This document shows, one piece after another, positions 13,600 through 58,724 of a stretch of DNA of 64,000 bases. The stretch is from assembly GCA_016214075.1 (NCBI GenBank), contig JACRPI010000020.1:55917-119916 (forward strand). The letters are read 5' to 3'. The notes beneath the pieces are model-generated. The model was not told the origin of the DNA, searched no databases, and saw only the letters and a list, made by a program, of their open reading frames with translations. This DNA is from Candidatus Woesearchaeota archaeon (lineage in GTDB: Archaea; Nanobdellota; Nanobdellia; Woesearchaeales; DSVV01). The first letter of the stretch is position 1. Every line of letters starts with the position of its first letter. Position numbers and translations under genes: made by a program.

Positions 13600-17360
<3,761 letters not shown>

Positions 17361-17390
17361 AAAAGCATCACGATACGGAGTTGATTATGT

Positions 17391-17672: not shown

Positions 17673-17687
17673 TTTTTTGTGAATGTC

Positions 17688-18107: not shown

Positions 18108-18172
18108 TTGTGATAATAACTGTTAAAACTGACAAAAAATAAATAAAAAAAACAAGATAAAAGTGAACAAAC

Positions 18173-18592: not shown

Positions 18593-18610
18593 AAATAGAA
18601 GGTATCGACA

Positions 18611-19210: not shown

Positions 19211-19317
19211 GGTTTGACTTTTTTTACTTCTTTTTTTAGTATATTTTTTCTTTTCTTTCATCCTATCTTTATTTTATCTTTTTTCTTTATTTGTGTTTGG
19301 CATAAACTTTACTAATA

Positions 19318-19391
19318 ACCCCATTGCTGCGGCAATGGGTCCCCCTGACATTTCTTTTTCACTGAGCGAATATTTTATTTGTGGGTGCGTG
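19318..19391 (+). repeat. Dispersed hairpin element, copy 2
   Basis: ACCCCATTGC-TGCG-GCAATGGGTCCCCCTGAC ... CTGAGCGAATATT ... GGTGCGTG. Confidence 0.9.
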
Positions 19392-19497
19392 TTGTTGTCC
19401 TTCGTTTCTTTGGTTGGTGTTGTAAAACTTATACTCAAAGAAGTAAAGTTGTTTCTATTTCAAAAACTATTTATACTCTAATGACTTACTTCATACC

Positions 19498-20115: not shown

Positions 20116-20193
20116 TTCTTTTGTCTTCTTTCTCTTTGAATAGTGCCTTTCAAGCCATAACCATTATAAATTTCCTCACACTTTTGTTCTTTT

Positions 20194-31309: not shown

Positions 31310-31370
31310 ATCTCTTGCTGAGATACGGTTGTTTATATTGCTTGTGGAAGAAGAATGTGTTGTTGCTATT

Positions 31371-31529
31371 TTATAACTCTCCTTTTCTGTCTGCTATGAT
31401 TGTATCATAAACAGACCATGCTTGACAACATCCGCATCCATTCTCATAATTTGGACAATGTTTTCCGTATAAGTTTTCTATTTTATGTTTCAGCCAATTT
31501 TCATAAACTCTTTCTTTCCTTTTTGTCAT
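31371..31529 (-). CDS. 52-aa Cys-rich microprotein (not in ORF track)
   Basis: Manual translation MTKRKERVYENWLKHKIENLYGKHCPNYENGCGCCQAWSVYDTIIADRKGEL. Confidence 0.55.
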   Translation of the reverse strand: MTKRKERVYENWLKHKIENLYGKHCPNYENGCGCCQAWSVYDTIIADRKGEL

Positions 31530-31605
31530 CACAAATGTTGTTATTCACTTCTATTTAACTCTTTCCTCAACAAAATATTTATACTCTTTTTTTATCCTTC
31601 TTTTT

Positions 31606-31983
31606 ATGGTCATAAAAAATGTCGTTACTGTTTTTATTTTTCATAATAATAAACTTCTTTTACTCAAAAGAAAAAAACAACCATATTTAGATTGCTGGGC
31701 TCCTCCTGGCGGGAAATTGGATGGTGATGAATCTCCTGAACAGGCTGCAGTTCGAGAGATAGTAGAAGAAGTGAATCTTCATGTTACTCTTGAAAAATAT
31801 CTTGGTTCGTATCTCAACCCAGAAACAGAAGTCCTCGATCATGTATTTACTACAACTTCTTTCTCAGGCACTGTGCATAACAACGAACCAGAGAAACACG
31901 AAACTGTTGCTTGGTTTTCCTTAGATGAAATCCCTCAAAACACGAGTTGGATAGTGAAAAGATGGCTGGAATTGAAGAAATGA
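31606..31983 (+). CDS. NUDIX hydrolase
   Basis: Nudix box GGKLDGDESPEQAAVREIVEEVNL. Confidence 0.93.
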   Translation: MVIKNVVTVFIFHNNKLLLLKRKKQPYLDCWAPPGGKLDGDESPEQAAVREIVEEVNLHVTLEKYLGSYLNPETEVLDHVFTTTSFSGTVHNNEPEKHETVAWFSLDEIPQNTSWIVKRWLELKK

Positions 31984-31989
31984 ACTAAA

Positions 31990-32880
31990 TTATTCTAACA
32001 ACTCCTTTACTCTCTCCACAATCTCATGATGCACTTCAACGACATGAACACCTGCAGAATTTAATGCAGCGACTTTCGCCGCTCGTGTTCCTTTGCCTTC
32101 TTCAATAATTGCTCCTGCATGACCTAATGTTGTTGAAGGGAGCATTTCTGCGAATTTTCCAGAAATAAACGCAATCACTGGTTTTGGATAGTTTGTTTTT
32201 TTGATATACTCCGCAGCGTCTTCTTCTGCTGTTCCTCCTATCTCTCCAAACAGAACAATTACTTTTGTTTCTTCATCGCTTTTGAACATTTCTAACAGTT
32301 CTACGTAATTTGTGCCCATGATAACATCTGCGCCACAACCCACTACTGTAGATTGTCCAATCCCTGCTTTTGTCAGAATAGATGCTGTTTCTGAAGACAT
32401 ACCGCCGCTCTTTGAAATAATTCCTACATTTCCTTTACTGAATTGTTCACTTGTTAATCCGCCAATCATCCCCACTTTTGCTTTTCCTGGACTAATGATG
32501 CCAATAGATGTTGGACCAATAATTGTTGCATGGTGTTTTTTTGCTAGCGCAACACAGTGTGCAGTATCTTTGATAGGAATGTTTTCTGTAATGACATTAA
32601 TGAGCTTGATGTTTGCTTCGAGCGCTTCAATCACTGCGTCTTTCGCTCCTTTTGCTGGCACGATAATTATGGATATGGTGATGTCTGGATGCGTTTGCAT
32701 TGCTTCTTTGCAACTATTGTAGACAGGAACTCCCTCTACTGTTTCTCCTCCTTTACCTGGACGGACTCCCGCAACGACATTTGTTTGGTAAGATTGCATA
32801 AACTGCGTTGCTCGAATTCCTTCTTTTCCAGTTATTCCTTGCACAAGGACTTTTGTTTTCTCGTTGATTAAAATGCTCAT
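31990..32880 (-). CDS. Citryl-CoA synthetase alpha / SucD-like CoA-binding subunit
   Basis: VLVQGITG, IGPTSIG, SKSGGM, GEIGG, phospho-His LGHAGA. Confidence 0.9.
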   Translation of the reverse strand: MSILINEKTKVLVQGITGKEGIRATQFMQSYQTNVVAGVRPGKGGETVEGVPVYNSCKEAMQTHPDITISIIIVPAKGAKDAVIEALEANIKLINVITENIPIKDTAHCVALAKKHHATIIGPTSIGIISPGKAKVGMIGGLTSEQFSKGNVGIISKSGGMSSETASILTKAGIGQSTVVGCGADVIMGTNYVELLEMFKSDEETKVIVLFGEIGGTAEEDAAEYIKKTNYPKPVIAFISGKFAEMLPSTTLGHAGAIIEEGKGTRAAKVAALNSAGVHVVEVHHEIVERVKELLE

Positions 32881-32933
32881 TTTTGTTTGCTCTCGTTGTT
32901 TTATTTTGTATTTTACTTCTTTTAATAATAAAT

Positions 32934-32995
32934 ACCCCATTCCCACTTCATGTGGGAATGGGTCCCCCTGATGTTTTTGCCTTTGTTGGTGCGTG
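32934..32995 (+). repeat. Dispersed hairpin element, copy 4
   Basis: ACCCCATTCCCAC-TTCAT-GTGGGAATGGGTCCCCCTGAT ... GGTGCGTG. Confidence 0.9.
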
Positions 32996-33037
32996 TTTTT
33001 TCTTTACTTTGCATTTTTTTACTTCTTTATTTTTTTT

Positions 33038-34231
33038 CTAACAAGCACAGCGTTTTCTCTCCTGTATTTTTTCAGCCATTTTTTTTGCCGCAACAGTAAT
33101 AGGTGTTTCATCGCCATACCATTCCATATCTAAGCAGAGTTCTTTTGCTGTTTGTTCGACTACTATTTTCGCTTCCTTATCTCCTGGTCCTGCGCGTCTG
33201 AAGATAATGGGATATTCAGGTTTTAATTCTTTGATGACTTTTATGATCGCAGCGATTGTTTCATGAATCTGCGTAAAATTCGCTTTTGCTCCGACGACAA
33301 ATAATCCCTTGAGATTTGGTTTGTGCATCACAATTCTTGTCAACGCTTCCACTTTTTCTGGACTTGGATTTCCACTGTATTCTGTATAATTCGCAGGCTT
33401 TTGCTTGTAGCTGATCAGCGCGTCCACTGCTGTAATGCTTGCGCCGCCACCTGACGCGAGTATGCCAACATCTCCTTCTAATTCGATGTATGTTTTTCCC
33501 GCAATTCCTCTGTGATCGAGTTCGTTGACCTTGTTTGCCGCGATTTCTGCCTCTGTTTTTTCTCTGCCTATTCCTACTCTTTGTGGGAATTGAATATTTT
33601 GTCTGAACAACGCATCGTCGTCAAGAATTATTTTCGCGTCAGCCGCGATGAGATCGTTGCTTTCTGTTTCAATAAGTGGATTTATCTCGAGTAATTTCAT
33701 ATCTTTGTCTATAAATAATTTGTAGAGCTTTTCCAATAGTGGAATCATCTGCAGATTTGCTATTCCTGCTTTGTGAAGGATGTGCTTTGCTTCATGTTCT
33801 GTGATGCTGTTGAGGATGTTTACTTGTTCCACAATCACTTTGCTTGGATGGATATTTTTTGTTTCTTCAACATCTACTCCTCCTTGACTGCTTGCGATGA
33901 TCACCGGATTTCTTGTCTTTGTGTCGTAGGTTATTGCGAGGTAGAACTCGTTTTTTATCTTGCACTTTGTTTCGATGAGGAGTTTTTTTACTGTTTCAAA
34001 GCTGTGGTGTTCGTGGAGGAGTTGTTTTGTTATTGTTTGAATCTCTTCTTTTGTTTTTGCGGATTTGATTAACCCCGCTTTTCCTCGCTTACCTTCTAAT
34101 GTCTGCGCTTTGATGATTACTTCTTCTGTTGGTTCTTGGATTTCTCTTGTGTTTTCTATTATGTATCCTTCTGGAACAGCTATTCCTGCTTCTTTGAGGA
34201 GTTGTTTTCCTTCGAATTCGTAGAGTTTCAT
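33038..34231 (-). CDS. Citryl-CoA synthetase beta / ATP-citrate lyase beta-like ATP-grasp subunit
   Basis: KLYEFEGK, GKRGKAGLI, LEINP; SGGGAS, ANYTEYSGNP and ANFT resemble ACL citrate-binding motifs rather than SucC NGAG/NFLD. Confidence 0.85.
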   Translation of the reverse strand: MKLYEFEGKQLLKEAGIAVPEGYIIENTREIQEPTEEVIIKAQTLEGKRGKAGLIKSAKTKEEIQTITKQLLHEHHSFETVKKLLIETKCKIKNEFYLAITYDTKTRNPVIIASSQGGVDVEETKNIHPSKVIVEQVNILNSITEHEAKHILHKAGIANLQMIPLLEKLYKLFIDKDMKLLEINPLIETESNDLIAADAKIILDDDALFRQNIQFPQRVGIGREKTEAEIAANKVNELDHRGIAGKTYIELEGDVGILASGGGASITAVDALISYKQKPANYTEYSGNPSPEKVEALTRIVMHKPNLKGLFVVGAKANFTQIHETIAAIIKVIKELKPEYPIIFRRAGPGDKEAKIVVEQTAKELCLDMEWYGDETPITVAAKKMAEKIQERKRCAC

Positions 34232-34293
34232 GAAGAATTGTCTCTTTGTTGTTCTTTTAAAGGTTGTGGAAGTTGGATGGAGAGGTTAGTATT

Positions 34294-34338
34294 TGTACCC
34301 CTACAAATTATTTTTTTTGATAGAATTGTAGGGGTACA
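34294..34338. terminator. 13-bp inverted repeat downstream of PEP-mobile gene
   Basis: TGTACCCCTACAA (34294-34306) / TTGTAGGGGTACA (34326-34338). Confidence 0.45.
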
Positions 34339-34344
34339 TTCTAT

Positions 34345-35397
34345 TTATGGTATTTTGGATAAAATTTTTTTCACAATCCCTTTCTCTGCATCCACTTCAA
34401 CAAGATCGCCGTCTTTGAGCATTCGTGTTGCATTCTTAGTTCCAATCACACAAGGGATTTTTAACTCTCTTGAGAGAATTGCTGCGTGACACACAAGTCC
34501 GCCTTCATCTGTGATAATCGCTGTTGCTTTCTCGATAAACGGCATGTAGATTGGACTTGTACTTACTGAAACTAAGATTTCTCCTTTGTTAAATATGACT
34601 CCTTTAATTGTTCGATCATTCACTATTCTGACTCTTCCCTTTACTATTCCAGGATATGCGCAGCGACCTTTGATCTCTTGTTCTTTTGTAATGGGTTCTA
34701 ACATTTCAATGATTTTTTCTGCATCAGTTCTGAAAGAAATATATTCTTTCTCATCAATGACTGCATAAACATAATTTCCTTCTTGATTCTTTCTCTCGTT
34801 ATACTTCTGCCACTCTTTTGCGAGAATTTCTTTATATGTCAGATAATTTACAGCATTTTCATTTACTCCTGCTTTTTTTGCTTCTTTTTGCGCAAGAGGG
34901 ATAATTATCTCTTCAATTATTCTTGGATAATATGATATTGCTCGTAGCTGTTCTGTCTTTTTGATCACTTCTTTGTCTTTGATTTCATTGAGAAATTCTC
35001 CTGCTCTGTAGGGAAGCGCTGTTGCATGCAGACTCAAAATGATTAAAAATTGCACTGCCTCTTGTAATGTTAGCGTTTCTTTTTTCGCAAGAATCCTTTC
35101 TGCTTGTTTATTGAGTTGTTCTGCTTTCTCAAGAAGTGTTCGTATCTTTTTTGTGTTTGTATAGATTTCTTTTGCGCATTTGTTATATGCTTCTACTTGT
35201 TCTTTTGGCCGGTAGCATCGTGCAACGTCTTTCTTTTCTTCTAGAAATAACACGTCTGGAAATCGTGCACCAAGAACTCGTTTCCATTCTTCTGATTCAT
35301 ACCATGTATGCCATAATGATGCACCAAAAAGATTAAATGGGCGCGTTAAGTAGTACTGCCAGTTTCTTGCTTTTAGAATGATGTTTATTTTGTTCAT
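34345..35397 (-). CDS. PEP-utiliser mobile (phospho-His) domain protein 1
   Basis: C-terminal GRCAYPG..AIITDEGGLVCHAAILSRELKIPCVIGT..LKDGDLVEVDA. Confidence 0.9.
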   Translation of the reverse strand: MNKINIILKARNWQYYLTRPFNLFGASLWHTWYESEEWKRVLGARFPDVLFLEEKKDVARCYRPKEQVEAYNKCAKEIYTNTKKIRTLLEKAEQLNKQAERILAKKETLTLQEAVQFLIILSLHATALPYRAGEFLNEIKDKEVIKKTEQLRAISYYPRIIEEIIIPLAQKEAKKAGVNENAVNYLTYKEILAKEWQKYNERKNQEGNYVYAVIDEKEYISFRTDAEKIIEMLEPITKEQEIKGRCAYPGIVKGRVRIVNDRTIKGVIFNKGEILVSVSTSPIYMPFIEKATAIITDEGGLVCHAAILSRELKIPCVIGTKNATRMLKDGDLVEVDAEKGIVKKILSKIP

Positions 35398-36473
35398 TGT
35401 ATCTTCCTTACAATTCCTTTCTCTGCGTCGACTTCGACAAGATCACCATCTTTCAGAATCTTTGTTGCGATTTTTGTGCCGATAATGCATGGTTTCTTGA
35501 TTTCTCTCGCAATGATCGCAGCGTGACAGATCAAGCCCCCTTCATTTGTCACAATTGCCTTGCATTTCTCCAAAACAGGCAGTAATGTTGGATTTGTGTT
35601 TATGGAAACAATAATATCTCCTTCTTGAAATTTATCCATATCATCCACTGCATTAATGATGCACACTCTTCCCTGGACAATTCCAGCACATGCACTTCTT
35701 CCCTGCACTTCTGTTTGTTCTTTCACACTGTTCTCTACAATATTGAGCTTTTCTTTTATCTTTTCATCGTAAAGGAAGATTGCTTTTTCTCTTTCATCAA
35801 AATACCACCAGCAGCCATTTTTTCGCTTGGAAATCTCTTGAACATCTTTCTGTTTTTCAAATATTTCTCTGACTTCTTCTGTTGTGCAGTATGCGTAATC
35901 TTTGGAATCAGCTCTTTTTGTTATTTCTGCTGCTTGCTTCCATATTTCTTCAATCACTGGTTGAAGTGCTCGTCTTGTTTTTTTTCGGAATGCTTGAAAC
36001 TCTTTTCTTATTTTTTCATATCTTCTTTGCTCTTCTTCAGTCATTCCTTGTTCCATCGCATATAATACATACCATGGAATGCAGGTGAGATAGAGAAAAA
36101 TATGCTCCATTTCATCAATAATCTCTCTGTACTGCTTTTTGAACTTTATATTCTTCTCTGAAAATCTCTTCATTAACGTTTCTTCTCTCTTTTGATACTG
36201 CTTCCCTTTCTTTATCCATTCTTGCAGTTTTGGATTCTTCTCTTTGATTATTTTAAGGAAATGTGTCACTACTGCTTTCATCTCCGCATCTGAGCGATAT
36301 GTTGTCGCAAATCCATCTTTATACCAACACAACTCTTTTCTAAATCTGAAGCCAGTCTCTTGTTCCATTAATGTACTATATGCTTTATAGAAAATAGAAA
36401 CATAGAAAATATTGCTCTTTCTCTCTAAATGCAATATCCAGTCTATTTTTTTGAGCGTTTTGATGGAAGTCAT
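35394..36473 (-). CDS. PEP-utiliser mobile domain protein 2
   Basis: AIVTNEGGLICHAAIIAREIKKPCIIGT. Confidence 0.9.
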   Translation of the reverse strand: MTSIKTLKKIDWILHLERKSNIFYVSIFYKAYSTLMEQETGFRFRKELCWYKDGFATTYRSDAEMKAVVTHFLKIIKEKNPKLQEWIKKGKQYQKREETLMKRFSEKNIKFKKQYREIIDEMEHIFLYLTCIPWYVLYAMEQGMTEEEQRRYEKIRKEFQAFRKKTRRALQPVIEEIWKQAAEITKRADSKDYAYCTTEEVREIFEKQKDVQEISKRKNGCWWYFDEREKAIFLYDEKIKEKLNIVENSVKEQTEVQGRSACAGIVQGRVCIINAVDDMDKFQEGDIIVSINTNPTLLPVLEKCKAIVTNEGGLICHAAIIAREIKKPCIIGTKIATKILKDGDLVEVDAEKGIVRKIQ

Positions 36474-36483
36474 CGTAGTTTTC

Positions 36484-36978
36484 TCACATATTCTCTATCT
36501 TCTTCATTACTTCTTTATACATATCAATAGAGAGATAAAAACCAGAAGAGATCATTCCATCAATATATTGTTTTGCTTCTTTTTTTGTTATTTTTTTCTC
36601 TTGCAATAAGAGTAATATTACATATACTGTTCCGTGTCTCTTTACTCTTAATGATTCTGCAACCTCTCGCGCATATATTTCATCTATAATCGCAATGGCG
36701 TTTTTCTCTCTTGCAAGAAAAATAACTTCTACATCCGCTTGGCTCAGGGGTATTTTTCTCTCTCTCTTTATTCTTGTTTTTTCTACAAGAAACTTCTTTT
36801 CTCTAATGAGGTTGTTCACATATGTCGCTTCAGTTTCTCTTCTTTCCAATCCTTTGAGAACAACTTCATCATACACACGTTGCGGTATGAATTTCCTTCC
36901 AGAAAGAAGTGAAACTTTCTCTAAAGCACGAACTTTTCCCAAATAGATAAGTGGTGATGCATCAAAGACATAATCCAT
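36484..36978 (-). CDS. PIN-domain toxin (DUF3368-like)
   Basis: YVFDASPLIYL, AIIDE..AR, HGTVYVIL. Confidence 0.88.
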   Translation of the reverse strand: MDYVFDASPLIYLGKVRALEKVSLLSGRKFIPQRVYDEVVLKGLERRETEATYVNNLIREKKFLVEKTRIKRERKIPLSQADVEVIFLAREKNAIAIIDEIYAREVAESLRVKRHGTVYVILLLLQEKKITKKEAKQYIDGMISSGFYLSIDMYKEVMKKIENM

Positions 36979-37274
36979 CAGAATGCCTCCAGATCCTCCT
37001 GGACAGCTCTATCTTTCACCCACTGAATTTTTGCTTCTTTTATTTTCGCAGTCAATGACCAGATATCTATTCCCGCAATCTCTGCCGCTTTACTTACTGT
37101 TGTTTTTCCCTCAGATAAAAGCTTGAGCGCGTGTTCGAGTCTCCACTCTTCCAACGATTTGAAGAGAAGTTTTCGTAATGCCGCTGACTTTTCCAAATGC
37201 TCTTCTTTCATATATACTTCTAATTCTGCTTCCAGGACTTCTGGAATTCTTGCGGAGATATTTACTTCAGTCAT
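36978..37274 (-). CDS. UPF0175-like antitoxin
   Basis: ISARIP, KSAALRKLL, EGKTTVSKAAEIAG; coupled to the PIN gene. Confidence 0.85.
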   Translation of the reverse strand: MTEVNISARIPEVLEAELEVYMKEEHLEKSAALRKLLFKSLEEWRLEHALKLLSEGKTTVSKAAEIAGIDIWSLTAKIKEAKIQWVKDRAVQEDLEAF

Positions 37275-37306
37275 AATGTATACATAGTATACCTTGTATA
37301 TAAAGT

Positions 37307-38671
37307 TTACGGAAGTTTTCTGACTGTTCCTTTCTCTGCGTCTACTTCGATAAGATCACCGTCTTTCAGAATCTTTGTTGCGATTTTTGTGCCGACAATA
37401 CAAGGCTTCTTCATCTCCCGCGAAACAATAGCTGCATGACTGATAATTCCACCTTCATTTGTCACAAACGCTGCTGCTTTTTGCATCGCAGGAAGGTATG
37501 TTGGATGTGTGGTGTTTGCAATGAGAATATCGCCGATCTCTACATTTTTGACATCATGGTACGATCGCACAATTTTGACTTTGCCTGTTATTTTTCCTTT
37601 AAAAGCAACAAGACCTTTTATAACTTCATTTTTCCCTTTATTCTCTATTTCTTCGATGCGTTTTTCATATTTTTCAGGAATATTTTTGTCTATAACTGTT
37701 ATTTTCAGATCTTCTCCCAAACACGTAATAATGCATGGCTTTTCTTTTCTTGCAGCAATTATTTTACTTGGATTATTTTCTTTTTTTAATGCACTTTCTA
37801 TCTCATCTAATGTCAGATATCCTACTTCTTCGTATTTTATTTTCCATGCTTTTGCTATTTCTTCAAACAAAAAAGTCCATGAATAGCAATGCATTCTTCT
37901 CAGATCATCTCTCCAATCTTTGAAGAAAATAATGTATGGCGCAAGTTCTAAGAACTTCTTTTCTTCAGGGGTTGGATTAAGGAGAGCAAACAGTTGTTTT
38001 TTGGTTAGTGCTTTTGCATCGTTGTGACTTTGAGCGGTGATATTTCTTACCCACGCTTCATCAAGGGGTCTATACCACACCACAGACCAGCTTCTGAGGA
38101 ATTGATATTCTTCTGCTATCTTTTTCGGAGAAATACCCTTGCTTATCTTTTCTTGTATCTCATGAAGCGCAGTATTTTTCCACGGCTTGTATGCTGCGGT
38201 GAGAATTTCATCTTGTTGGTGTTCTACTTTATTTCTTTTGATAATCCCATTCAGGAGCTGCTCAAAATCTGCCTGCCATGCTTCAATTGCAAGCCAGGAG
38301 AAAATACTATACACATAGTTGATTTGCATGAACTGTTCTCTGAACTCACGAAACGCTTCCTGCGTCTTTGTTCTCTTCTCTTTTTCCCACTTCTCTGTTG
38401 TCTTCTGTATCTTTTTCAGAAGGACTTGTCCTTCGTTATAGTATTTTTGAATTTGTTCTGGAGTATTGAAATATTTTTTGTACAGAAATCTTCCTACTTC
38501 TTTCTGATCTACCCCAATATAGTGGGTGAAATTCTTTTCTTGAAAATGCGTGAAAAACAGTTCTTCTTTTTTTTGCGCAAATTGCCAGACCGCATCGTAA
38601 AAAACAATGTCTAAGCCAGAGATCGTTGTGATGTCCACGCCTTCTCTCGCTAAAAGTTTTTGCCAGGTCAT
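37307..38671 (-). CDS. PEP-utiliser mobile domain protein 3
   Basis: AFVTNEGGIISHAAIVSREMKKPCIVGT. Confidence 0.9.
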   Translation of the reverse strand: MTWQKLLAREGVDITTISGLDIVFYDAVWQFAQKKEELFFTHFQEKNFTHYIGVDQKEVGRFLYKKYFNTPEQIQKYYNEGQVLLKKIQKTTEKWEKEKRTKTQEAFREFREQFMQINYVYSIFSWLAIEAWQADFEQLLNGIIKRNKVEHQQDEILTAAYKPWKNTALHEIQEKISKGISPKKIAEEYQFLRSWSVVWYRPLDEAWVRNITAQSHNDAKALTKKQLFALLNPTPEEKKFLELAPYIIFFKDWRDDLRRMHCYSWTFLFEEIAKAWKIKYEEVGYLTLDEIESALKKENNPSKIIAARKEKPCIITCLGEDLKITVIDKNIPEKYEKRIEEIENKGKNEVIKGLVAFKGKITGKVKIVRSYHDVKNVEIGDILIANTTHPTYLPAMQKAAAFVTNEGGIISHAAIVSREMKKPCIVGTKIATKILKDGDLIEVDAEKGTVRKLP

Positions 38672-45619: not shown

Positions 45620-46909
45620 TTACTTTATAATTGTCCACTTTTTTGCTTTTTCTTTAATTCTTTTATCTTTAAGAATTGCTTTGATCAGTTCTTCTGGTTT
45701 TTGGTATTTTCGTTTTATTTTTGCGTACAAGCGTTCGCCTTTGAAGAAGATTTCTTTATGCTTTGCGCGGAACGCTTTGACATCTTCTTGCAGTTTTAAT
45801 GGTGGTCCTTGCTGCTCTGTGATTGCAGAGAGCTTCTTTTCTTTTACCACAATCCAAATGAGCGCAGCCTTTTCCTGTTCTTCTTCCCAATCCCAACCAG
45901 ATTCTTCTGTATGAAACTCATTTCTCTCGAGTTCTTCTTTCATATATTCAAAGCTCTTGAAAATCTTTGTACCGATGGTGTCGAGTTTTCCATGTGTTGG
46001 CAATGCTTTAAGAATAATGCACGCCGCGTCTTTCTTTGCCGCGTCTTTTTTTATTTTCGCGATATCTGTTTTTGTGATACTCTTTCTTTTGAAAAATTCT
46101 ATACTCGGTTTTGCGAGCAACGCTGTTGCTTGATTTTTGATGGTGTAGAATTGTTCAAAACTCACTGCAGCTGCCGCGTTTCTTTCTGGCTGTACTGGAT
46201 CGATCATGATAATCGCGGATTGGAGCTTGTCAGGATTTAATGTGTTCATGTTTACCGCATGTGGTGTCATGTTGATGAGTTCTTTCTCCTGCCACTTTTC
46301 GATGTTTTCCAGCAGTGCTTTGAATGAGCCGTAGTAGACTGTTAGAAGGTCAACAACATGGCCAGAAAAGCCATTCATGTAACTTTCCGCGCCATAGACT
46401 TTTTGCGCTTTGAAGAAAAGTTTGGTGAGCAGGATTTGGTCTCTGATTTCTTCACTAATGTGTTGATTTAACCATTCGACGTGGAGCGGGCTCATGTCTG
46501 TAATATTCTTTGCCATGTTTTTGTTAGTGATATAGAGAACAGGGATGATTTCGTAATGCAGATCTTTCCATTTGCCTGTGAAATAATCTCTTGAACCATG
46601 GACTTTTTCGTATTTTACACTCTTTATTTTTTTTAGCGCAGTTTCTAGAATAGTTGAAAGATCTTTTTCTTTGTATTTGTCATATTGAAATCGCACGAAA
46701 ATATCGCAGTCAAAGTCGTGTTTGATGAATGTTCCTTTTGCCGCGCTGCCTCCAAGCATGACATACGCTTCGATTTTCATGTGATCTAACGCAACTCGGA
46801 TTTCGTGGAGAAATCCGTCTATTTTCTTTAAGATGATATCGTGTTCTTTCTTTGATGTTTTGTATTTCTTGAGAATTGTTTGCGTGACTTTGGTGAAGGT
46901 ATCTGCCAT
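45620..46909 (-). CDS. cca: Archaeal class I CCA-adding enzyme
   Basis: LGGSAAKGTFIKHDFDCDIFV, DMSPLH, GFSGHVVDLL, DPVQPERNAAAA. Confidence 0.95.
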   Translation of the reverse strand: MADTFTKVTQTILKKYKTSKKEHDIILKKIDGFLHEIRVALDHMKIEAYVMLGGSAAKGTFIKHDFDCDIFVRFQYDKYKEKDLSTILETALKKIKSVKYEKVHGSRDYFTGKWKDLHYEIIPVLYITNKNMAKNITDMSPLHVEWLNQHISEEIRDQILLTKLFFKAQKVYGAESYMNGFSGHVVDLLTVYYGSFKALLENIEKWQEKELINMTPHAVNMNTLNPDKLQSAIIMIDPVQPERNAAAAVSFEQFYTIKNQATALLAKPSIEFFKRKSITKTDIAKIKKDAAKKDAACIILKALPTHGKLDTIGTKIFKSFEYMKEELERNEFHTEESGWDWEEEQEKAALIWIVVKEKKLSAITEQQGPPLKLQEDVKAFRAKHKEIFFKGERLYAKIKRKYQKPEELIKAILKDKRIKEKAKKWTIIK

Positions 46910-50294: not shown

Positions 50295-50669
50295 CTATGA
50301 AATTATTTGTGTATTCTCAAATCCTCTGAAATCATTGTCTGCTGTTATTACCTGCGCATTTTCCTGCGTTGCTGTCGCGTAAATAATCGCATCTGCAAGT
50401 CCTACCTTTTTTTCATGTTTCAGAATTGCAGCTGCTTTCGCAATCTCATTTGTTACAGGAATACTAAAACTATATTGCAGGAGAATTTCATTCGCTCTTT
50501 CTGCGTCTGCTTTATTTCTCTTGCTCAGCACATGTCGATATATTTCTGCAATATTGATTGTACTTATCATTATCTTTTCTTCTCCTTCAATAAGTGCTTG
50601 CACTTTTTTTCCAAGAAGGGATCCAGAGAAATACTCTATCCACAAATTTGAATCAATCAAGACGGTCAA
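50295..50669 (-). CDS. vapC: PIN-domain toxin VapC
   Basis: LIDSNLWIEY, STINIAEI, GLADAIIYATA, TADNDF. Confidence 0.93.
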   Translation of the reverse strand: MTVLIDSNLWIEYFSGSLLGKKVQALIEGEEKIMISTINIAEIYRHVLSKRNKADAERANEILLQYSFSIPVTNEIAKAAAILKHEKKVGLADAIIYATATQENAQVITADNDFRGFENTQIIS

Positions 50670-50976: not shown

Positions 50977-52278
50977 ATGACTTATATGTTACGCAAAGAT
51001 CTTAGCGGAAGAAATGGAAGAACTATCGCTCAAGCAGAATATGCTTTTATTCCGGGAGCAGAGCAGGAAGTGTTTCGTCTTATTTCTGGTCCACCTGGAG
51101 ACTTTCGCGTTGTTGGTGGTTCGATCCGTAAATTTGTTACTGGTTCTGATAGAACTTTAGAGACTTTTTTACTTCGTGAGTATGCTCAACGAGGATTTTC
51201 TGTTCCTCATATTCGCTCTGAAGACGAAGAGGGTTTTGTTATGAATTATGTTCCTGGCACAACCTTTTTTGAAAAGATCTTTTTTGATTCTGCGTTGGAT
51301 GTTCCTCATTATATTGCGCTTTTACGAGAGAAATATGCAGTTGCTTCTATTATGGATAGTGTCTTACCAGAGATATTACCTGAAGAACAGAAAGCTCGAC
51401 TCCTCTTGAAAGAAGAAGAAAAAATCAAAGCGCTTGGAGCAACTCCTTTTGCTATAAACAATACTCCTTATACCGCAAAAGTTAAAGGAAGATATACTCA
51501 TTTAGAAGGTATCGATGTGCCATCGACATTCTTTGATTTTCTTGCTACTTTTGAACAACGCTTTGCTCCTCTTTTACAATCTGAAAAACATTGGTTTATT
51601 GAAGCAAATGGTCGTAATTGGGTAGAAGATGTTCGTCTTGATCTTGGGGGCGTTTTTGAAGGACATCCCGATTCGTTTTTACTTGACACTCCGTATCTCT
51701 TTTCCAATACATATTGGCTTCGCAGAAAAGCAGAGGCAGACTTTTTCTTACCACGTTATAATGCAGTTGAAAAAGCAAAAAATGATATTGTTATGGAAAA
51801 TGCAGTGAACGAAGGACGAGATCCTACTCGTGCTTTATTTGCGTATCAAATTTCTCGTGTGTATAGAAACCTTCTCGAACTTGCTTATTGTTATAATGAT
51901 GCATGCAAAACAAAAGAAAATATTGCTGATGATCCTGTTCCTCAGGGTGCTCGTTTGTTGATGTATGCGTCTATGATTTTTGCGCATCAAGAAATGCAGA
52001 ATTCTGGGGTTACAACAACTTTAAACACGCTCATTCAACAACAACCCGAAGCTGTTTCTGATTTGGTTCAAGAGTATCAGTCTTATAATTCAGCAGTTGA
52101 TCATGTGGTTAGACAAATGATGGCAAAATTAGGGTTGATGGAGCCTGCAGTTCTTGCTCAGGTCTTTACTCATTTTGCGTTTATGCGCGATAATTATCGA
52201 ACGTATGGTCCGGATAGTCCATTCTCTATTTTCTCCATGCATAATTCCTATGCTGATATTCGTTTGGTAGATTCTTAG
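50977..52278 (+). CDS. Hypothetical protein, possible kinase-like/APH fold
   Basis: ETFLLRE..GFSVPHI..FVMNYVPG; FIEANGRN and DLG weakly resemble HGD..N and DFG. Confidence 0.6.
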   Translation: MTYMLRKDLSGRNGRTIAQAEYAFIPGAEQEVFRLISGPPGDFRVVGGSIRKFVTGSDRTLETFLLREYAQRGFSVPHIRSEDEEGFVMNYVPGTTFFEKIFFDSALDVPHYIALLREKYAVASIMDSVLPEILPEEQKARLLLKEEEKIKALGATPFAINNTPYTAKVKGRYTHLEGIDVPSTFFDFLATFEQRFAPLLQSEKHWFIEANGRNWVEDVRLDLGGVFEGHPDSFLLDTPYLFSNTYWLRRKAEADFFLPRYNAVEKAKNDIVMENAVNEGRDPTRALFAYQISRVYRNLLELAYCYNDACKTKENIADDPVPQGARLLMYASMIFAHQEMQNSGVTTTLNTLIQQQPEAVSDLVQEYQSYNSAVDHVVRQMMAKLGLMEPAVLAQVFTHFAFMRDNYRTYGPDSPFSIFSMHNSYADIRLVDS

Positions 52279-53138
52279 ATAAGGAGCGCCACTACATGCG
52301 ATGAAAGCGCAAATAAATATTCTGAAATGGTGTGCATAGAAAGAGACATAGGAACACCTTTCAGTTCTTTTTTTCGCACATCAGAAAGCATTGTGTTTAT
52401 GCGCATTGCTTCTTCGAGTTTGTTCGCAAAGAGTGCGGATTGCAGCGCAGCAAAAGCATCAGTTTTTTGCTTAAGAAGTTCATATTCATGGTTTGACCAT
52501 ACTTTTTTTGTTCTTCCAATATCCACATAACACCCTGCAATTTTCTCTGCAAGAAAAACAAGTGTATAATATTCATAGCATCTATCATTTTGGAACGTAG
52601 TTTTATTGATTATAAGTTGACAGTAATCTCTTAGTTTTAGGATAGATATTCTCAGATCTTCTGCTTCTTTTGTCGTTTTCTTTTCCTTGATGTTTTCTAA
52701 AACTTCTTCTTGAAGCACTGTAATTGACGTAAAAAACTTCTGTAATACTGTTGCAAGCGTTGCTGTGTCAATCTTTAGTATATTTTTGATAATTACTTCT
52801 CTTTTACTTTGCTTTACAATGACTAGGCCAAGTAAGGTATCGACAATGCGCTGCATTGATGCGTAAGAAAAGTCTTCAGTGCTTCTCAATGTTATTGTTG
52901 TATATCCTCTTCTATACGCAGAAGCAAGAATTGTTCTTATTCGTGAATCATTCTGATTCTTTATTTCAAACGTCGTTGCTCTCTCCTGTTTTTGATATTC
53001 TGCTGCAATAAGAAGATTTCCATGACGCTCTTCGATCGTCACTTCTTCCTCTCCTGAAAGATTGTGCGCTCTCACCCATTCGATAGGAAGCGTGACAGTA
53101 AACCCTCCCGCGCCTTGTTTGATGAGTTTTCGCTTCAT
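52275..53138 (-). CDS. AbrB/SpoVT N-terminal + PhoU-like regulator
   Basis: RKLIKQGAGGFTVTLPIEWV; LASAYRRGY; helical repeats. Confidence 0.85.
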   Translation of the reverse strand: MKRKLIKQGAGGFTVTLPIEWVRAHNLSGEEEVTIEERHGNLLIAAEYQKQERATTFEIKNQNDSRIRTILASAYRRGYTTITLRSTEDFSYASMQRIVDTLLGLVIVKQSKREVIIKNILKIDTATLATVLQKFFTSITVLQEEVLENIKEKKTTKEAEDLRISILKLRDYCQLIINKTTFQNDRCYEYYTLVFLAEKIAGCYVDIGRTKKVWSNHEYELLKQKTDAFAALQSALFANKLEEAMRINTMLSDVRKKELKGVPMSLSMHTISEYLFALSSHVVALLI

Positions 53139-53869: not shown

Positions 53870-55051
53870 ATGGAAGAAGCATTCACATTAATGAATCCGT
53901 GGTGGAGTAATAATTCTCTCAATACAGGCATCAGAAGGGAAAAATATCTCGTTCCGCTCCTTTCTTCTCTTGACAAAAAAGAAATTGCCTTTTTGACAGG
54001 TTTACGAAGAGTGGGAAAAACAACGCTTCTTAAACAAATTATTCAGGAACTCCTCGCAAAAACTGAACCAAACACCATTCTTTATCTTACTCTGGACTTT
54101 ATCACTTTTCATGGAATGACTATTCACGCGCTTATTGAAGCGTTTCGTAAAATGCATGGTCATACACGAGATAAAAAGATTTACTTATTTTTAGATGAGA
54201 TCGTCCATGTTCCCTCTTTTGAACAAGAGCTTAAGAATTTTTATGATTTGGAGCATGTAAAAATTTATGCCTCCTCTTCTTCAGCGTCTCTACTTCGTTC
54301 AAAAAATAATTATCTTGTTGGAAGATCGCGCATTATTGAGATTCATCCTCTTGACTTTTCAGAGTATCTTCTCTTTAAAGGAATCATTGTAAAAAAAGAA
54401 GAAAGTTATCTTCTTGACAAACATTTTGAGCAATATGTACTTTATGGTGGACTTCCTGAATATGTTATTACAGGAGATCCTCAAACGATTAAGACAACAA
54501 TAGAACAAATTATGTATAAAGACATTATTGCTGTTTATAACATTAAAGATAAGGAAACTGTAGAAAAACTCTTCTTGCTTCTCTGTGAGCGCGTGGGAAA
54601 GAGACTCAGTTATGCAAAGATTGCGCGTATCTTAGGATGTAGTGTTGATAGTGTTAGAAGATATATTGGTTATTTTGAGGAGACTTTTTTGTTTTATACT
54701 ATTGAACGATATGCACGCTCTCTTAATGAACGCACTTTTTCTCCTAAAAAAGTATACATCGCTGACACTGGCATTCATACTGTCTTTGTCGGGGCAAAAG
54801 ACAAGGGCGCTCTTTTTGAAAATCTTATTTTCATGGAAATAAAGGATAATTCTGTCCATTATTATTTTGAAAACGGAAAAGAAATTGATTTTATACTTGT
54901 GAAACCGAAAGAAAAGATTGCTATTGAAGTAAAATATAAAGAAAAAATAGAAAAAGAAGAGCTTTCTTTCTTTCATGAGTCTCCATTCTCAAAAAAAATA
55001 CTCGTTCAAAATTACAAAGATTTGCAGAAGCTCTCTTCCTTCATCGCTTAA
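53870..55051 (+). CDS. AAA_14 ATPase with DUF4143
   Basis: GLRRVGKTT, FLDEI, YGGLPE, KVYIADTG, LFEN, EIDF, IEVK. Confidence 0.93.
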   Translation: MEEAFTLMNPWWSNNSLNTGIRREKYLVPLLSSLDKKEIAFLTGLRRVGKTTLLKQIIQELLAKTEPNTILYLTLDFITFHGMTIHALIEAFRKMHGHTRDKKIYLFLDEIVHVPSFEQELKNFYDLEHVKIYASSSSASLLRSKNNYLVGRSRIIEIHPLDFSEYLLFKGIIVKKEESYLLDKHFEQYVLYGGLPEYVITGDPQTIKTTIEQIMYKDIIAVYNIKDKETVEKLFLLLCERVGKRLSYAKIARILGCSVDSVRRYIGYFEETFLFYTIERYARSLNERTFSPKKVYIADTGIHTVFVGAKDKGALFENLIFMEIKDNSVHYYFENGKEIDFILVKPKEKIAIEVKYKEKIEKEELSFFHESPFSKKILVQNYKDLQKLSSFIA

Positions 55052-55844: not shown

Positions 55845-56315
55845 TTACATCAACGCTTTGATATAATCAAAATATTCCTTCATATTCTTGTAAAACTCTG
55901 TTACTTTATCAATGTGCACATGATATTCTCCTTCATCAAGTTGCGCGATCAGCGTGACATGTCTTCTGTATTCGTTAATGCTGTTGTACTCCGCTTTGCT
56001 TAATGTCTTTATGAGAATATAAAATTCCAAGAAATTCATTAATGTCTTGTCGTCGGGATAGAGGCGCTTGAGCTCCTTGCATTTCATCATCGGATGCGGC
56101 GTCAAGCTTTTTACTTTTCCTGTGCTTTTCGCGTGCTCGCCGAGCGCGTTCATCATGCATTCGCATGTCGCGATCATTCTCTCGACAACATTCTTGAGCA
56201 CGTCTGTTGTTCGTGTGTATTTTAGACTGACATAGATCAAGTGATCGACACGTTTCAATTCTTCGTATGCTTCTTCCAGTTGATCTCTCATGTTTTCACA
56301 CACTCTCTGATACAC
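55845..56315 (-). CDS. Hypothetical protein (HEPN-like helical appearance)
   Basis: ELKRVDHLIYVSLKYTRT, EYRRHVT; clean ORF. Confidence 0.7.
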   Translation of the reverse strand: MYQRVCENMRDQLEEAYEELKRVDHLIYVSLKYTRTTDVLKNVVERMIATCECMMNALGEHAKSTGKVKSLTPHPMMKCKELKRLYPDDKTLMNFLEFYILIKTLSKAEYNSINEYRRHVTLIAQLDEGEYHVHIDKVTEFYKNMKEYFDYIKALM

Positions 56316-56477
56316 ACTTCTTTATATTTCCTTCTCTTCTCTTCGAGAACTGAATTTTATAATGATTATATAATCATCTTTATAAGGTTTGTGTGTCTTT
56401 TTTGTTTTTGCTCTTCATTCTTTGTTACCGAGAGATGCTCCTTTTCGCATTTTTGCTTTCTCTCATTTTCGCAAAGT

Positions 56478-56485
56478 TTATATAC
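56478..56485 (+). promoter_or_regulatory. TATA box for the microprotein array
   Basis: TTTATATA preceded by purine-rich BRE-like GCAAAG, ~45 bp upstream of the 56528 ATG. Confidence 0.5.
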
Positions 56486-56527
56486 TATTCTTTCTGGTGA
56501 ATGATGTTACACAAAAGAGGTGTTTAG

Positions 56528-56695
56528 ATGGGAGATGCAAAAACAAGTTACAAAGTTGGTGGGAATCAAGCGAAAGGAAATCCAAAGAGTATTGAAGCGC
56601 AAAATAAAGTAGGGAATGTTCGCTCTTCAGGAACTATTAAAGGAACAACAGGAACACAACGTGGATTAGGCGCAGGATTAAAACGACGAAAATAA
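56528..56695 (+). CDS. Basic Gly/Lys-rich microprotein 1 (55 aa)
   Basis: Manual translation MGDAKTSYKVGGNQAKGNPKSIEAQNKVGNVRSSGTIKGTTGTQRGLGAGLKRRK. Confidence 0.75.
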   Translation: MGDAKTSYKVGGNQAKGNPKSIEAQNKVGNVRSSGTIKGTTGTQRGLGAGLKRRK

Positions 56696-56747
56696 TTTAT
56701 TCATATTTATAACAATTTCATAACAATAAATAAAAAAAGGTGAGAAT

Positions 56748-56915
56748 ATGCCAGATAAAAGCAAAACAAACAAAATTAAACATGGTGGTTCAGTAAGTGC
56801 TGTGGGCGCTAAGGTTACAAAAAGGACTATTGGTGAAAATGACTTTGATCAAGGTCAAGCAAGCACAAAATTTACTTCAAAACGTCAATTTGGCGGTAAA
56901 GTGAAAAGAGAGTAA
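56748..56915 (+). CDS. Basic microprotein 2 (55 aa)
   Basis: AGGTGA SD; MPDKSKTNKIKHGGSVSAVGAKVTKRTIGENDFDQGQASTKFTSKRQFGGKVKRE. Confidence 0.8.
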   Translation: MPDKSKTNKIKHGGSVSAVGAKVTKRTIGENDFDQGQASTKFTSKRQFGGKVKRE

Positions 56916-56930
56916 CGAGAGGCGAATATC

Positions 56931-57101
56931 ATGGTAGTTCGAGGACATACGCTTACTCAAGCACGGAAAGGATTTACTGATACATCTGAAAAAAATATAG
57001 CAAGAACTGTTAAAGCACAGTCTGGTTCAGGTCAGAAAGGTGCTAATGAATCAGGTGGATTTGCTGCTTCGCGTGGTCTTGGATTGAAAAAACGTTCATA
57101 A
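56931..57101 (+). CDS. Basic microprotein 3 (56 aa)
   Basis: GAGGCGA SD-like; MVVRGHTLTQARKGFTDTSEKNIARTVKAQSGSGQKGANESGGFAASRGLGLKKRS. Confidence 0.78.
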   Translation: MVVRGHTLTQARKGFTDTSEKNIARTVKAQSGSGQKGANESGGFAASRGLGLKKRS

Positions 57102-57129
57102 TTTGATAAAAAAAAGGAGGATGATTTTA

Positions 57130-57303
57130 ATGGGAGTAATACCACATGGAAAAACAACAGGTCAAGGAGTTAAAGGAAAAACAGCAGGTCTTAGCGCGAC
57201 CAAAACAGGCATTGCAGCAGGTCACTCATTTACTATATCTCGTTCAGGAAAGACAGATAAAAAATCAGGCCTTGCAGCATTAACAGGACGAGGAAAACAG
57301 TAA
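57130..57303 (+). CDS. Basic microprotein 4 (57 aa)
   Basis: AGGAGG SD; MGVIPHGKTTGQGVKGKTAGLSATKTGIAAGHSFTISRSGKTDKKSGLAALTGRGKQ. Confidence 0.8.
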   Translation: MGVIPHGKTTGQGVKGKTAGLSATKTGIAAGHSFTISRSGKTDKKSGLAALTGRGKQ

Positions 57304-57311
57304 TCTTTTTT

Positions 57312-57494
57312 ATGGCAATCAAAGGAAAAAGTACAGGACGCACTGCGCGTGAAAATGAACCAGCAGGTTTATGGCAGTCACGACAGCGCGCAGGAAAAGC
57401 GACGGGACTTAGTCGAGGATCCGCTAAACAGCTCTCTGGAAAATCTTCTGTTACTGTCAACAAACAGAAATATACCACAGATCAGTTTTCTTGA
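57312..57494 (+). CDS. Basic microprotein 5 (60 aa)
   Basis: MAIKGKSTGRTARENEPAGLWQSRQRAGKATGLSRGSAKQLSGKSSVTVNKQKYTTDQFS; followed by a T-rich tract. Confidence 0.75.
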   Translation: MAIKGKSTGRTARENEPAGLWQSRQRAGKATGLSRGSAKQLSGKSSVTVNKQKYTTDQFS

Positions 57495-57560
57495 TTTTGT
57501 TGTTTCTTTTTTCTCTTTTTTTGAGAAGTTTTAAAAGTATGTTCTTGTTTTTGGTTCTAT

Positions 57561-58724
57561 ATGAAAAAAACAGCTGTAAAAGCTTCGAAAACACTTTCTT
57601 CTCCTGCTCTCACACTCACGTTTCGCGGGTTTGAAGCGATTGCCGCCCTTGAAGTAAAAGAAATTCTTGGAAAAAAAGCTCTTGCTGCTGCAGAATATGT
57701 GACTTTCTCTGCAACAGATACAGAACTTGCGGAACTCTGCTATAAAACACAAGCAGCACGACGGGTTTTGCGGCTCTTTTGCACATTTTCTTTTTCTACT
57801 TTTGATTCTCTTGTCGCTTCGACAACAGCGCTTCTTGAAAAAGCAGATCTTTCGCTTCTTTCTGGAAAAACATTTCGTGTCGAATGCGAACGCTATGGCA
57901 ACCACTCTTTTAGCAGTCAAGAGGTTGCTGCGACACTTGGAGGTGTTTTTCTCAAGCAACAACCACAAGCGTCTGTTGGTCTTGACGATCCAGACATTAT
58001 TATTTATTGTTTTATTCGTGATGATCTTTGCATTCTCGGGCTTGATTTCGCAGGATTTGATCTTTCCAAACGAGAGTATAAAATTTACGCGCAGACTCAT
58101 ATGCTCAACGCGGCGTTTGCGTATTGCGTTGTTCGTTACACAGGGTATGCAGGGAAACAGGCGCTTGTTGATCCTCTTTGTGGCGTTGGTTTACTTCCTC
58201 TTGAAGCAGCGCTCTTTGCAACGCGCATGTCTCCACGCTTTTATCAGAAACAAATTTTTTTATTTCATCGTTTTTTGACAATTGATCTTGGAAAATTTGA
58301 CAAAGAAGTTCCTAAAAAAGTGCTTGACACGATTTCTCTTCACGGCTATGATGTGCATCTTCGTAATCTTGAGGCGTCCAAGAAACACGCGAAACTTGCC
58401 GGCGTCGCGAAGCATATCACTTTCGCGCGAGGAGACATTGAGTGGATTGACACAAAAGTTGATGAGAAATCACAGGACATTGTTGTCAGCCAAATGCCTG
58501 TTGAAGGCCGCGCAGTTTCTGAAAAAGATATGCTTAAACTCTACAAAGAGTTTTTTTATCAGCTTGAGTTTGTCATGAAGGATACTGGTGTTATGGTTTT
58601 GCTTTGTCAGAAAACAGCGGTTTTGAAAAATGCTTTGGAATATTTCATGATTGTCAAAGAACATATTGTTTGGCAAGGTGAACAGCAGTTTATTTTGGTT
58701 ACACTGAAGAAAGTGAAAACGTAA
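57561..58724 (+). CDS. THUMP-domain RNA methyltransferase (Trm14/RlmL-like), divergent motifs
   Basis: FRVECER..HSFSSQEV, VGLDDPD, DLSKREYK, VDPLCGVG. Confidence 0.85.
   Translation: MKKTAVKASKTLSSPALTLTFRGFEAIAALEVKEILGKKALAAAEYVTFSATDTELAELCYKTQAARRVLRLFCTFSFSTFDSLVASTTALLEKADLSLLSGKTFRVECERYGNHSFSSQEVAATLGGVFLKQQPQASVGLDDPDIIIYCFIRDDLCILGLDFAGFDLSKREYKIYAQTHMLNAAFAYCVVRYTGYAGKQALVDPLCGVGLLPLEAALFATRMSPRFYQKQIFLFHRFLTIDLGKFDKEVPKKVLDTISLHGYDVHLRNLEASKKHAKLAGVAKHITFARGDIEWIDTKVDEKSQDIVVSQMPVEGRAVSEKDMLKLYKEFFYQLEFVMKDTGVMVLLCQKTAVLKNALEYFMIVKEHIVWQGEQQFILVTLKKVKT

Follow-up and report, generated by a model that had tools for sequence, protein, structure and literature searches.

We report on an array of five small genes in a 64,000-nucleotide stretch of DNA from a Candidatus Woesearchaeota archaeon (contig JACRPI010000020.1 of assembly GCA_016214075.1; hereafter the window, to which all coordinates refer). 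An initial annotation, made from the letters alone, had described five consecutive + strand open reading frames (ORFs) at 56528-57494, spaced 8-52 bp. All coordinates, lengths and gaps (52, 15, 28 and 8 nt) were verified. Judged by its sequence, the array is a self-contained operon that extends from a consensus promoter, made up of a transcription factor B recognition element (BRE) and a TATA box, to an oligo-T tract, and its five genes represent three lineage-restricted families, here termed A, B and C. The components of the array are listed below (SD, Shine-Dalgarno site; aa, amino acids).

56470-56484, + strand: archaeal promoter of the array, a BRE-like CGCAAAG followed by the TATA box TTTATATA
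56516-56522, + strand: SD of ORF1, AGAGGTG, 5 nt before the ATG
56528-56695, + strand: ORF1, 55 aa, net charge +10, family A
56738-56743, + strand: SD of ORF2, AGGTGA
56748-56915, + strand: ORF2, 55 aa, net charge +8, family A'
56917-56925, + strand: SD of ORF3, GAGAGGCGA
56931-57101, + strand: ORF3, 56 aa, net charge +8, family B
57116-57120, + strand: SD of ORF4, GGAGG
57130-57303, + strand: ORF4, 57 aa, net charge +9, family B'
57312-57494, + strand: ORF5, 60 aa, net charge +9, family C
57495-57526, + strand: T-rich tract after ORF5, with runs T6 and T7, read from the sequence

Other assemblies, most of them from groundwater metagenomes of several data sets, contain the array in at least 12 distinct sequence versions (loci L001-L004, at 79-87% DNA identity; L005, identical; and L006-L012, L015, L016, L018, L019 and L023). 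All five ORFs are already called as genes, without a name, in NCBI nr. The absence of ORFs 1-3 from the list of reading frames used for the initial annotation is most simply ascribed to a length cutoff, their products being 55-56 aa long, whereas ORF5 encodes 60 aa and ORF4 can be extended to 66 aa from an upstream TTG. For ORF4 we prefer the start at 57130; an ATG further upstream, at 57121, directly adjoins the SD, and residues preceding the motif MG[VI][IV]P are not conserved. The clustering of these basic ORFs is not due to chance. The window has 174 ORFs of 40-90 aa that begin with ATG, and only members of the cluster have both a net charge of +6 or more and a hydrophobic fraction below 20%.

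In every orthologue, the annotated frame alone is free of stop codons; each of the other five frames is stopped in most orthologues and none is open in all. For ORF1 this holds across 7 orthologues, in which only the annotated frame is open, and the ORF2 frame is open in 8. Start codons have changed to TTG in ORF3 of L015 and ORF5 of L010, with the frame kept. Pairwise Nei-Gojobori comparisons with the window (dS up to about 1) gave ratios of nonsynonymous to synonymous substitution rates (dN/dS) of 0.13-0.42 for ORF1, 0.15-0.77 for ORF2, 0.04-0.24 for ORF3 (the most conserved member), 0.29-0.67 for ORF4 and 0.10-0.26 for ORF5, and substitutions were commonest at the third codon position. Neighboring genes are more constrained (0.08-0.11 for a THUMP-domain methyltransferase, 0.05 for minD and 0.013-0.022 for a gene encoding a 148-aa hypothetical protein), the array values being 2-8 times higher. 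The small genes are thus under purifying selection that is more relaxed than that on their neighbors. The initial annotation had held that its proposal would fall if related genomes showed no conservation or purifying selection, or if close relatives carried frameshifts. We found instead that the ORFs are real and conserved, with dN/dS below 1 throughout (0.04-0.77) and the annotated frame intact in all orthologues.

A reading of these ORFs as spurious, situated in a non-coding or RNA-coding region, is scarcely credible. It draws on the fact that all five fall under common gene-calling length thresholds and lack a database family; it is contradicted by the frame-specific openness, dN/dS below 1, the third-position excess, the retained SD sites and a composition unique within the window, and frame openness together with dN/dS effectively refutes it. 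An Rfam scan of the region returned only a chance match to CrcZ (E = 0.92). An alternative-frame ORF inside ORF4 (57146-57283) was also considered and was rejected; orthologues do not keep it open consistently, and its substitutions have the wrong codon-position pattern for a coding sequence.

By profile comparison, the five proteins make up three families: A (ORF1 and ORF2), B (ORF3 and ORF4) and C (ORF5). The families are lineage-specific and previously undescribed. With close orthologues alone, no pair of ORFs was convincingly related, and the relationships emerged after divergent members had been added; ORF3 homologues were traced down to 57% identity. The ORF3 and ORF4 families align over their full length (hhalign probability 96.8%, E = 3e-10, score 49.4), with column-shuffled controls scoring 10.5 ± 2.3 and none of 50 reaching the observed value (z = 16.9); by this comparison, the two are clear paralogues. 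For the ORF1 and ORF2 families, the comparison spanned 47 columns and gave z = 4.9. Some 4-gene arrays (L016 and L023) have a single ORF1-like protein, which mixes the ORF2-type SYT with the ORF1-type KVGGN motif, and the first ORF of L023 also has the ORF2-type end ...QGFGGIKRK, such that features of A and A' are joined in one protein. The C-terminal half of ORF2 is conserved (ENDF..KRQFGGKVKR). We regard ORF1 and ORF2 as probable paralogues. ORF5 has no relationship to the other four that profile comparison could detect. To the remark in the initial annotation that the sequences are not simple duplicates it must be added that ORF3 and ORF4 are related, and ORF1 and ORF2 probably so. The C-terminus that it saw shared by ORF1 and ORF3 exists, but is not particular to that pair; all of ORF1-4 end in the short motif G-x-G-[LV]-K-[KR]-[KR].

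Gene order is always A-B-C, in versions of three, four or five genes. Loci L019-L022 carry A-B-C; L012 and L016 carry A-B-B'-C, with ORF2 absent; L018 carries A-A'-B'-C; and the window and its closest relatives have all five. In our reading, the ancestral unit is A-B-C, and tandem duplication produced the 4- and 5-gene versions. In L023 (616-1154), two family B' copies of 57 and 58 aa lie on either side of a stretch of N and an incomplete ORF5-like fragment, an arrangement that reflects either one more tandem duplication or an artefact of scaffolding.

The proteins share their bulk properties to a greater degree than their sequences. The computed net charges agree with the range of +8 to +10 that had been counted by hand. 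None of the five contains cysteine, and the longest strictly hydrophobic run is 3 residues, so that, as the initial annotation had stated, they lack a transmembrane helix or signal peptide. Across 51 sequences from the three families, length ranges from 46 to 64 aa, net charge from +6 to +16 and isoelectric point from 9.9 to 12.0. Glycine accounts for 12-20% of residues; Gly, Lys, Ser, Thr, Ala, Gln, Asn and Arg together account for about 75%; and Cys is absent. A family A protein of L023, outside this set, has a net charge of +4. Charge-hydropathy analysis puts all 51 sequences on the disordered side (mean normalised hydropathy 0.36-0.41, below the boundary). Maximal 18-residue helical hydrophobic moments (0.32-0.51, with negative mean hydrophobicity) are below the surface-active range. 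Within families, pairwise identity drops to 17-29% while composition stays. The earlier suggestion of selection on a biophysical property fits this pattern, in which length, charge, lack of Cys and a disordered-type composition persist at such identities while dN/dS is raised.

AlphaFold2 models of ORF3 and ORF5 had mean predicted local distance difference test (pLDDT) scores of 55.0 (8-sequence alignment) and 55.4 (9 sequences), respectively. The sole better-scored element is the conserved C-terminal V-x-V-[NG]-K-x-K-Y of ORF5, modeled as a beta-hairpin with pLDDT about 70-74. When alone, the products are probably disordered.

Several sequence signals bear on the expression of the array. The copy of AAAGTTTATATA at 56473-56484 is the only exact match to the BRE/TATA consensus in the 64 kb window (0.77 expected), and four one-mismatch copies elsewhere in the window suggest that this is the promoter consensus of the organism. 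A block of the promoter, TTTCGCAAAGTTTATATAC, is kept in L002, L006, L007 and L008, and with little change in L012 and L023, which are divergent. The TATA box that the initial annotation had noted is thus real, part of an exact consensus, and conserved in relatives. The promoter lies ~45 nt upstream of the ORF1 ATG, which would leave a short leader that carries AGAGGTG. GAGGTG precedes ORF1 in 7/7 loci examined; the SD-like motifs previously reported for ORFs 2-4 are present, but ORF1, which had been omitted, has one too. The sites of ORF1-4 are conserved across loci. ORF5, by contrast, has no SD in 9/9 loci and starts 0-8 nt past the ORF4 stop (8 nt in the window) or overlapping it, features that indicate probable translational coupling to ORF4. 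The T-tract recorded downstream by the initial annotation is likely to be an archaeal oligo-T terminator, and a separate promoter-like TTTTAAAAG precedes the THUMP methyltransferase gene that follows. A scan for sigma-70 promoters and intrinsic terminators, which is unsuited to an archaeon, yielded nothing relevant.

Codon choice for Arg, Gln and Gly in the array is closer to that of the RNA polymerase and S12/S7 genes than to that of 16 other genes in the window; CGN codons make up 85% of Arg codons versus 66%, and CAG 50% of Gln codons versus 35%, from a small sample (19 Arg and 16 Gln codons). Such codon choice is a hint of high expression, not a proof. From the perfect promoter, the SD sites and the codon usage, we infer that the array products are probably abundant. 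Between the array and the divergent operon that begins with the 148-aa gene lies a perfect 16-bp palindrome, ATGATTATATAATCAT (56362-56377), found with 1-2 mismatches in L002 and L006-L008; it could be a leftward TATA region or a putative regulator binding site.

The families appear to be confined to a narrow DPANN clade (Woesearchaeota, or GTDB 'Nanoarchaeota' type). This assignment follows the labels of the named homologues, which are exclusively hypothetical proteins of Nanoarchaeota archaeon and Candidatus Woesearchaeota archaeon, in keeping with the DPANN host that had been guessed, and the window itself is archaeal by its split rpoB, rpoA'/A'', NusA-KH, S12, S7, NAC and archaeal CCA-adding enzyme genes. 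When 1.84 billion 50%-identity representatives were searched in full with HMMER and the ORF3 profile, only four genuine clusters were recovered; the remaining hits, to long repeat proteins, were judged spurious. Word-indexed searches returned ~8 clusters at 90% identity for each of ORF3 and ORF5, and 36 matches for the combined B family. These searches covered the ORF3 family by full profile and ORF5 by a single-sequence word index, and family A members were gathered through synteny. Pattern scans, which divergent members may escape, located one locus among GTDB species representatives and two in JGI metagenomes. The sole GTDB representative contig with the array (L013, CAYLMH010000006.1) is titled "uncultured Methanosarcinales archaeon", probably a mislabel. 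No relative of ORF3 or ORF5, the two profiles tested, was found among IMG/VR viral contigs, and the literature searches turned up neither the proteins nor their accession numbers.

The genes adjacent to the array on either side are as follows.

55845-56291 (to 56315 with an upstream GTG), - strand: 148-aa hypothetical protein (156 aa from the GTG), first gene of the divergent minD operon
57561-58724, + strand: THUMP plus UPF0020 methyltransferase (Pfam THUMP, UPF0020), a Trm14-like tRNA m2G enzyme

The initial annotation had called for a check of the order minD-hypothetical-array-THUMP, and this order does recur in relatives; the conserved neighbors are minD, the 148-aa protein, the THUMP methyltransferase and a 108-aa protein. 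The best NCBIfam match of the THUMP gene is Trm14_Arch, at 148 bits, under the 280-bit cutoff; the function of Trm14 has been described (PMC3177210, PMC9957541). The gene adjoins the array in every sufficiently long locus, down to 46% protein identity, although its orientation is reversed in L015. The L019 copy starts 2 nt past ORF5 and is probably co-transcribed with the array. In that locus, the minD and 148-aa genes are replaced by cca (L019 3-953, - strand), encoding a CCA-adding enzyme 69% identical to the window copy at 45620-46909, such that the 3-gene array sits between two tRNA-maturation genes. The minD gene is of archaeal type (TIGR01969, 198 bits versus a cutoff of 201.75). The array is divergent to the 148-aa/minD operon in most loci, and is never in the same transcription unit as minD; its link to the THUMP gene is the more persistent of the two. 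We treat the THUMP and 148-aa genes as context only, the former as a neighbor rather than an established member of the system. In divergent relatives, the THUMP enzyme bears a Lys/Ser/Thr-rich basic N-terminal extension of 25-35 aa, similar in composition to the small proteins (L016 4617-5207; L023 1432-1600; L012 926-1063), of which the window copy has a short version only. The 148-aa gene is kept beside the array in all loci except L019. Its product is exceptionally conserved, with 98% identity between relatives whose THUMP enzymes share 84-89%, and 81-85% between those whose THUMP enzymes share 51-62%; it has no match in Pfam, NCBIfam, PHROGs or the PDB and may be a MinD partner.

The initial annotation recognized no family for the array proteins, and neither did we: scans of the five proteins against Pfam and NCBIfam (both at E ≤ 10) and PHROGs, and of 16 family B members against Pfam, gave no match. 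The sole match in a PDB search, to a deacetylase chain (E = 0.24), was attributed to chance. Comparison with known systems offers partial likenesses. Extended small ribosomal proteins of archaea and eukaryotes (for example eS30, eL39 and eL41) offer one, being strongly basic chains of 25-60 aa with much Lys, Arg and Gly that have no structure away from the ribosome and are expressed at high levels; in its codon preferences, too, the array is similar to S12/S7 and RNA polymerase genes. The array differs in having no Pfam, NCBIfam or PDB match, in lying in no ribosomal operon, in its narrow clade and in a dN/dS of up to 0.77. Sul7d and Cren7 are folded SH3-like beta-barrels. Together with Sso7d and other lineage-specific nucleoid-associated proteins, they resemble the array products in being about 60 aa long, Lys-rich, basic and lineage-restricted, and in the abundance expected of the latter (background on small archaeal chromatin proteins is given in PMC7613761 and PMC11841832). 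The AlphaFold2 models of ORF3 and ORF5, however, show no barrel and no confident fold, which is weak structural evidence given the shallow alignments, and the family B profile finds no Sso7d/Sac7d chain in the PDB. Two resemblances, of ORF3/ORF4 to Sso7d through (S/T)FT...G.GKT.GRG and of the ORF3 N-terminus to eS30, were unsupported by any search and were dropped.

Bacterial-type small hydrophilic proteins provide another comparison. KGG-repeat proteins (YciG, GsiB) and minor small acid-soluble spore proteins (SASPs; SspK-P) are likewise small, Gly-rich, Cys-free, hydrophilic, disordered and encoded by multiple genes, some of them in small operons; the array proteins differ in lacking a Pfam match, in containing the KGG tripeptide in only 2/51 sequences, in being much more basic and in their archaeal host. 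Histone tails, protamines and H1-like polycations have a similar Lys/Arg/Gly/Ser/Thr/Ala composition, but the array proteins have no histone fold and neither SPKK nor AT-hook motifs (0/51 each). Strings of 5-6 residues, GRGKQ and TQARKG among them, do look alike, but they are expected from composition alone and we treat them as coincidence; GRG alone occurs in 18/51 sequences. Trm112 is a small protein tied to a THUMP-domain tRNA m2G methyltransferase (PMC6144793, PMC7641767), and the small genes here always adjoin a THUMP methyltransferase gene; this neighbor, however, is Trm14-like, not Trm11. Trm112 is folded and has a Zn knuckle in many species, while the array proteins have no Cys, PF03966 match or confident fold. 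For ParA/MinD partner proteins (MinE, McdB and ParB-type N-terminal peptides), the comparison turns on linkage to the ATPase gene, and the array lies divergently beside the 148-aa/minD operon in most loci but not in L019. By every sequence or motif test run, the array proteins are not members of the ribosomal, chromatin or hydrophilin families.

The reading that we favor, with a probability of roughly 45%, is that the array products are abundant, disordered polycations that bind nucleic acid. Under this model, small proteins would be made in quantity and in fixed proportion, and would act together by binding nucleic acid electrostatically. Joint action is suggested by the invariable co-occurrence of the genes, their fixed order and translational coupling, and a polyanionic target by the consideration that proteins which all carry positive charge and are nearly devoid of hydrophobic residues could bind little else. 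A few conserved aromatic positions might supply stacking contacts, candidates being QLGF in family A, GH[VT]F and SG[LF]A in family B, and GL[WFY]x[ST]R and KY in family C. The action of the proteins could be comparable to that of extended basic ribosomal proteins or small archaeal chromatin proteins. Given the persistent tRNA-enzyme neighborhood (the Trm14-like THUMP gene, and the CCA-adding enzyme in L019), RNA, as ribosome or tRNA, is slightly favored over DNA as the target, though the evidence does not separate them. By presumed function, we would class the proteins as small basic binders of nucleic-acid type that form new families.

A number of observations weigh against this interpretation. 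The array is outside the ribosomal-protein operon, with S12 and S7 38 kb away, and its dN/dS is above the level usual for ribosomal proteins. No recognized nucleic-acid-binding motif is present, RGRP, RGG and SPKK each occurring in 0/51 sequences, and profiles of all five ORF families (labelled A6, A7, A3, A5 and A4) found no relevant PDB chain at E ≤ 10 in a search that covered solved archaeal and eukaryotic ribosomes and chromatin proteins. Low pLDDT values from 8-9-sequence alignments are a weak sign of disorder. Finally, the THUMP synteny may amount to inherited gene order within one order-level clade, which suffices as an explanation because all these genomes come from a single clade; the inversion in L015 and the separate promoter of the gene point the same way.

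The composition of the proteins is also that expected of hydrophilin-type protectants, which would shield macromolecules or membranes during starvation or cold and would not bind nucleic acid specifically. All 51 sequences are rich in Gly and highly hydrophilic, the operational mark of hydrophilins, which describes a class of composition and not homology, and the polar content, the absence of Cys, the charge-hydropathy position, the several similar genes per operon and fast sequence evolution with composition kept would all suit such a role. Yet the Pfam library, which includes the KGG-repeat, LEA, CsbD-like and minor SASP families, gave no match at E ≤ 10, the KGG tripeptide is rare, and net charges of +6 to +16 are far more basic than is typical of hydrophilins in general. 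The promoter, in addition, gives the impression, and only that, of being constitutive and consensus-like rather than specialized. We consider protectants of this kind unlikely. Partnership with a neighboring enzyme is quite unlikely: the small proteins would serve as activators, RNA-recruiting tails or methyl-acceptor substrates of the Trm14-like THUMP enzyme, by analogy with Trm112 as activator of Trm11, or as basic partner peptides of the MinD/ParA-type ATPase, by analogy with MinE or McdB. THUMP methyltransferases with small activators have been described (PMC6144793, PMC7641767); every locus has the THUMP gene beside the array; outside L019, the array and the minD operon diverge from a common intergenic region; and the predicted C-terminal beta-hairpin of ORF5 could extend a sheet of a partner. 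The proteins nevertheless match neither Trm112 (PF03966) nor any other Pfam family and have no Cys or Zn knuckle. The T-tract and a separate promoter stand between ORF5 and the THUMP gene in the window, the THUMP gene is inverted in L015, cca takes the place of the minD and 148-aa genes in L019, and three to five polycations exceed the need of a single enzyme.

Among the three roles that the initial annotation had put forward, that of exported cationic effector or precursor peptides, antimicrobial or directed at the host of an episymbiotic DPANN cell, is the least supported, and we think it very improbable. DPANN lifestyles involve host contact, and the array products are small, cationic, multi-copy and fast-evolving. 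Export would call for features that the locus lacks. There is no signal peptide or leader, hydrophobic runs do not exceed 3 residues, and hydrophobic moments of at most 0.51 with negative mean hydrophobicity leave no amphipathic segment; the conserved neighborhood contains no protease, modifying enzyme or transporter gene, and neither ORF3 nor ORF5 has a relative among IMG/VR viral contigs.

DPANN archaea are abundant in groundwater and largely uncultured, and many of their genes have no assigned function. Proteins shorter than 60 aa are, in addition, often missed by gene callers. The array provides a small-protein operon that is demonstrably coding and conserved and that lies behind the best promoter match in 64 kb. 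Its A-B-C core with lineage-specific duplications is a compact example of disordered proteins evolving under constraints of composition rather than position, and the proteins are short enough for chemical synthesis. If our preferred reading of the products as nucleic-acid-binding polycations is correct, a coating of RNA or DNA would bear on the organization of the ribosome, tRNA or the chromosome in ultra-small cells with reduced genomes. A more far-reaching version holds that A, B and C constitute a lineage-specific nucleic-acid-coating system of Woesearchaeales-type DPANN archaea, either as new ribosomal or tRNA-associated proteins or as a histone-independent, 'tail-like' polycation chromatin. 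We regard this version as doubtful; if true, such a system would be a major unannotated component of these cells.

Other parts of the window contain features apart from the array. A transcription and translation cluster at 10218-21291 contains the split rpoB, rpoA'/A'', NusA-KH, S12 and S7 genes. In archaea, S7 is usually followed by the genes for EF-2 and EF-1alpha; here it is followed by a 205-aa protein without a family match and then a DRG-type GTPase. Genes of toxin-antitoxin or defense type are scattered at 1542-2120, 50295-50669, 52275-53138 and 53870-55051, and comprise two PIN-domain genes, a weak MazE-like match and an AAA_14/DUF4143 ATPase. On the - strand at 30536-38671 are ATP-citrate lyase/citryl-CoA-like genes, encoding a citrate synthase C-terminal domain, a CoA-ligase and an ATP-grasp protein with a citrate-binding domain, followed by three paralogues with a PEP-utilising mobile domain. 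Such metabolic content is unexpected in a DPANN-type genome.

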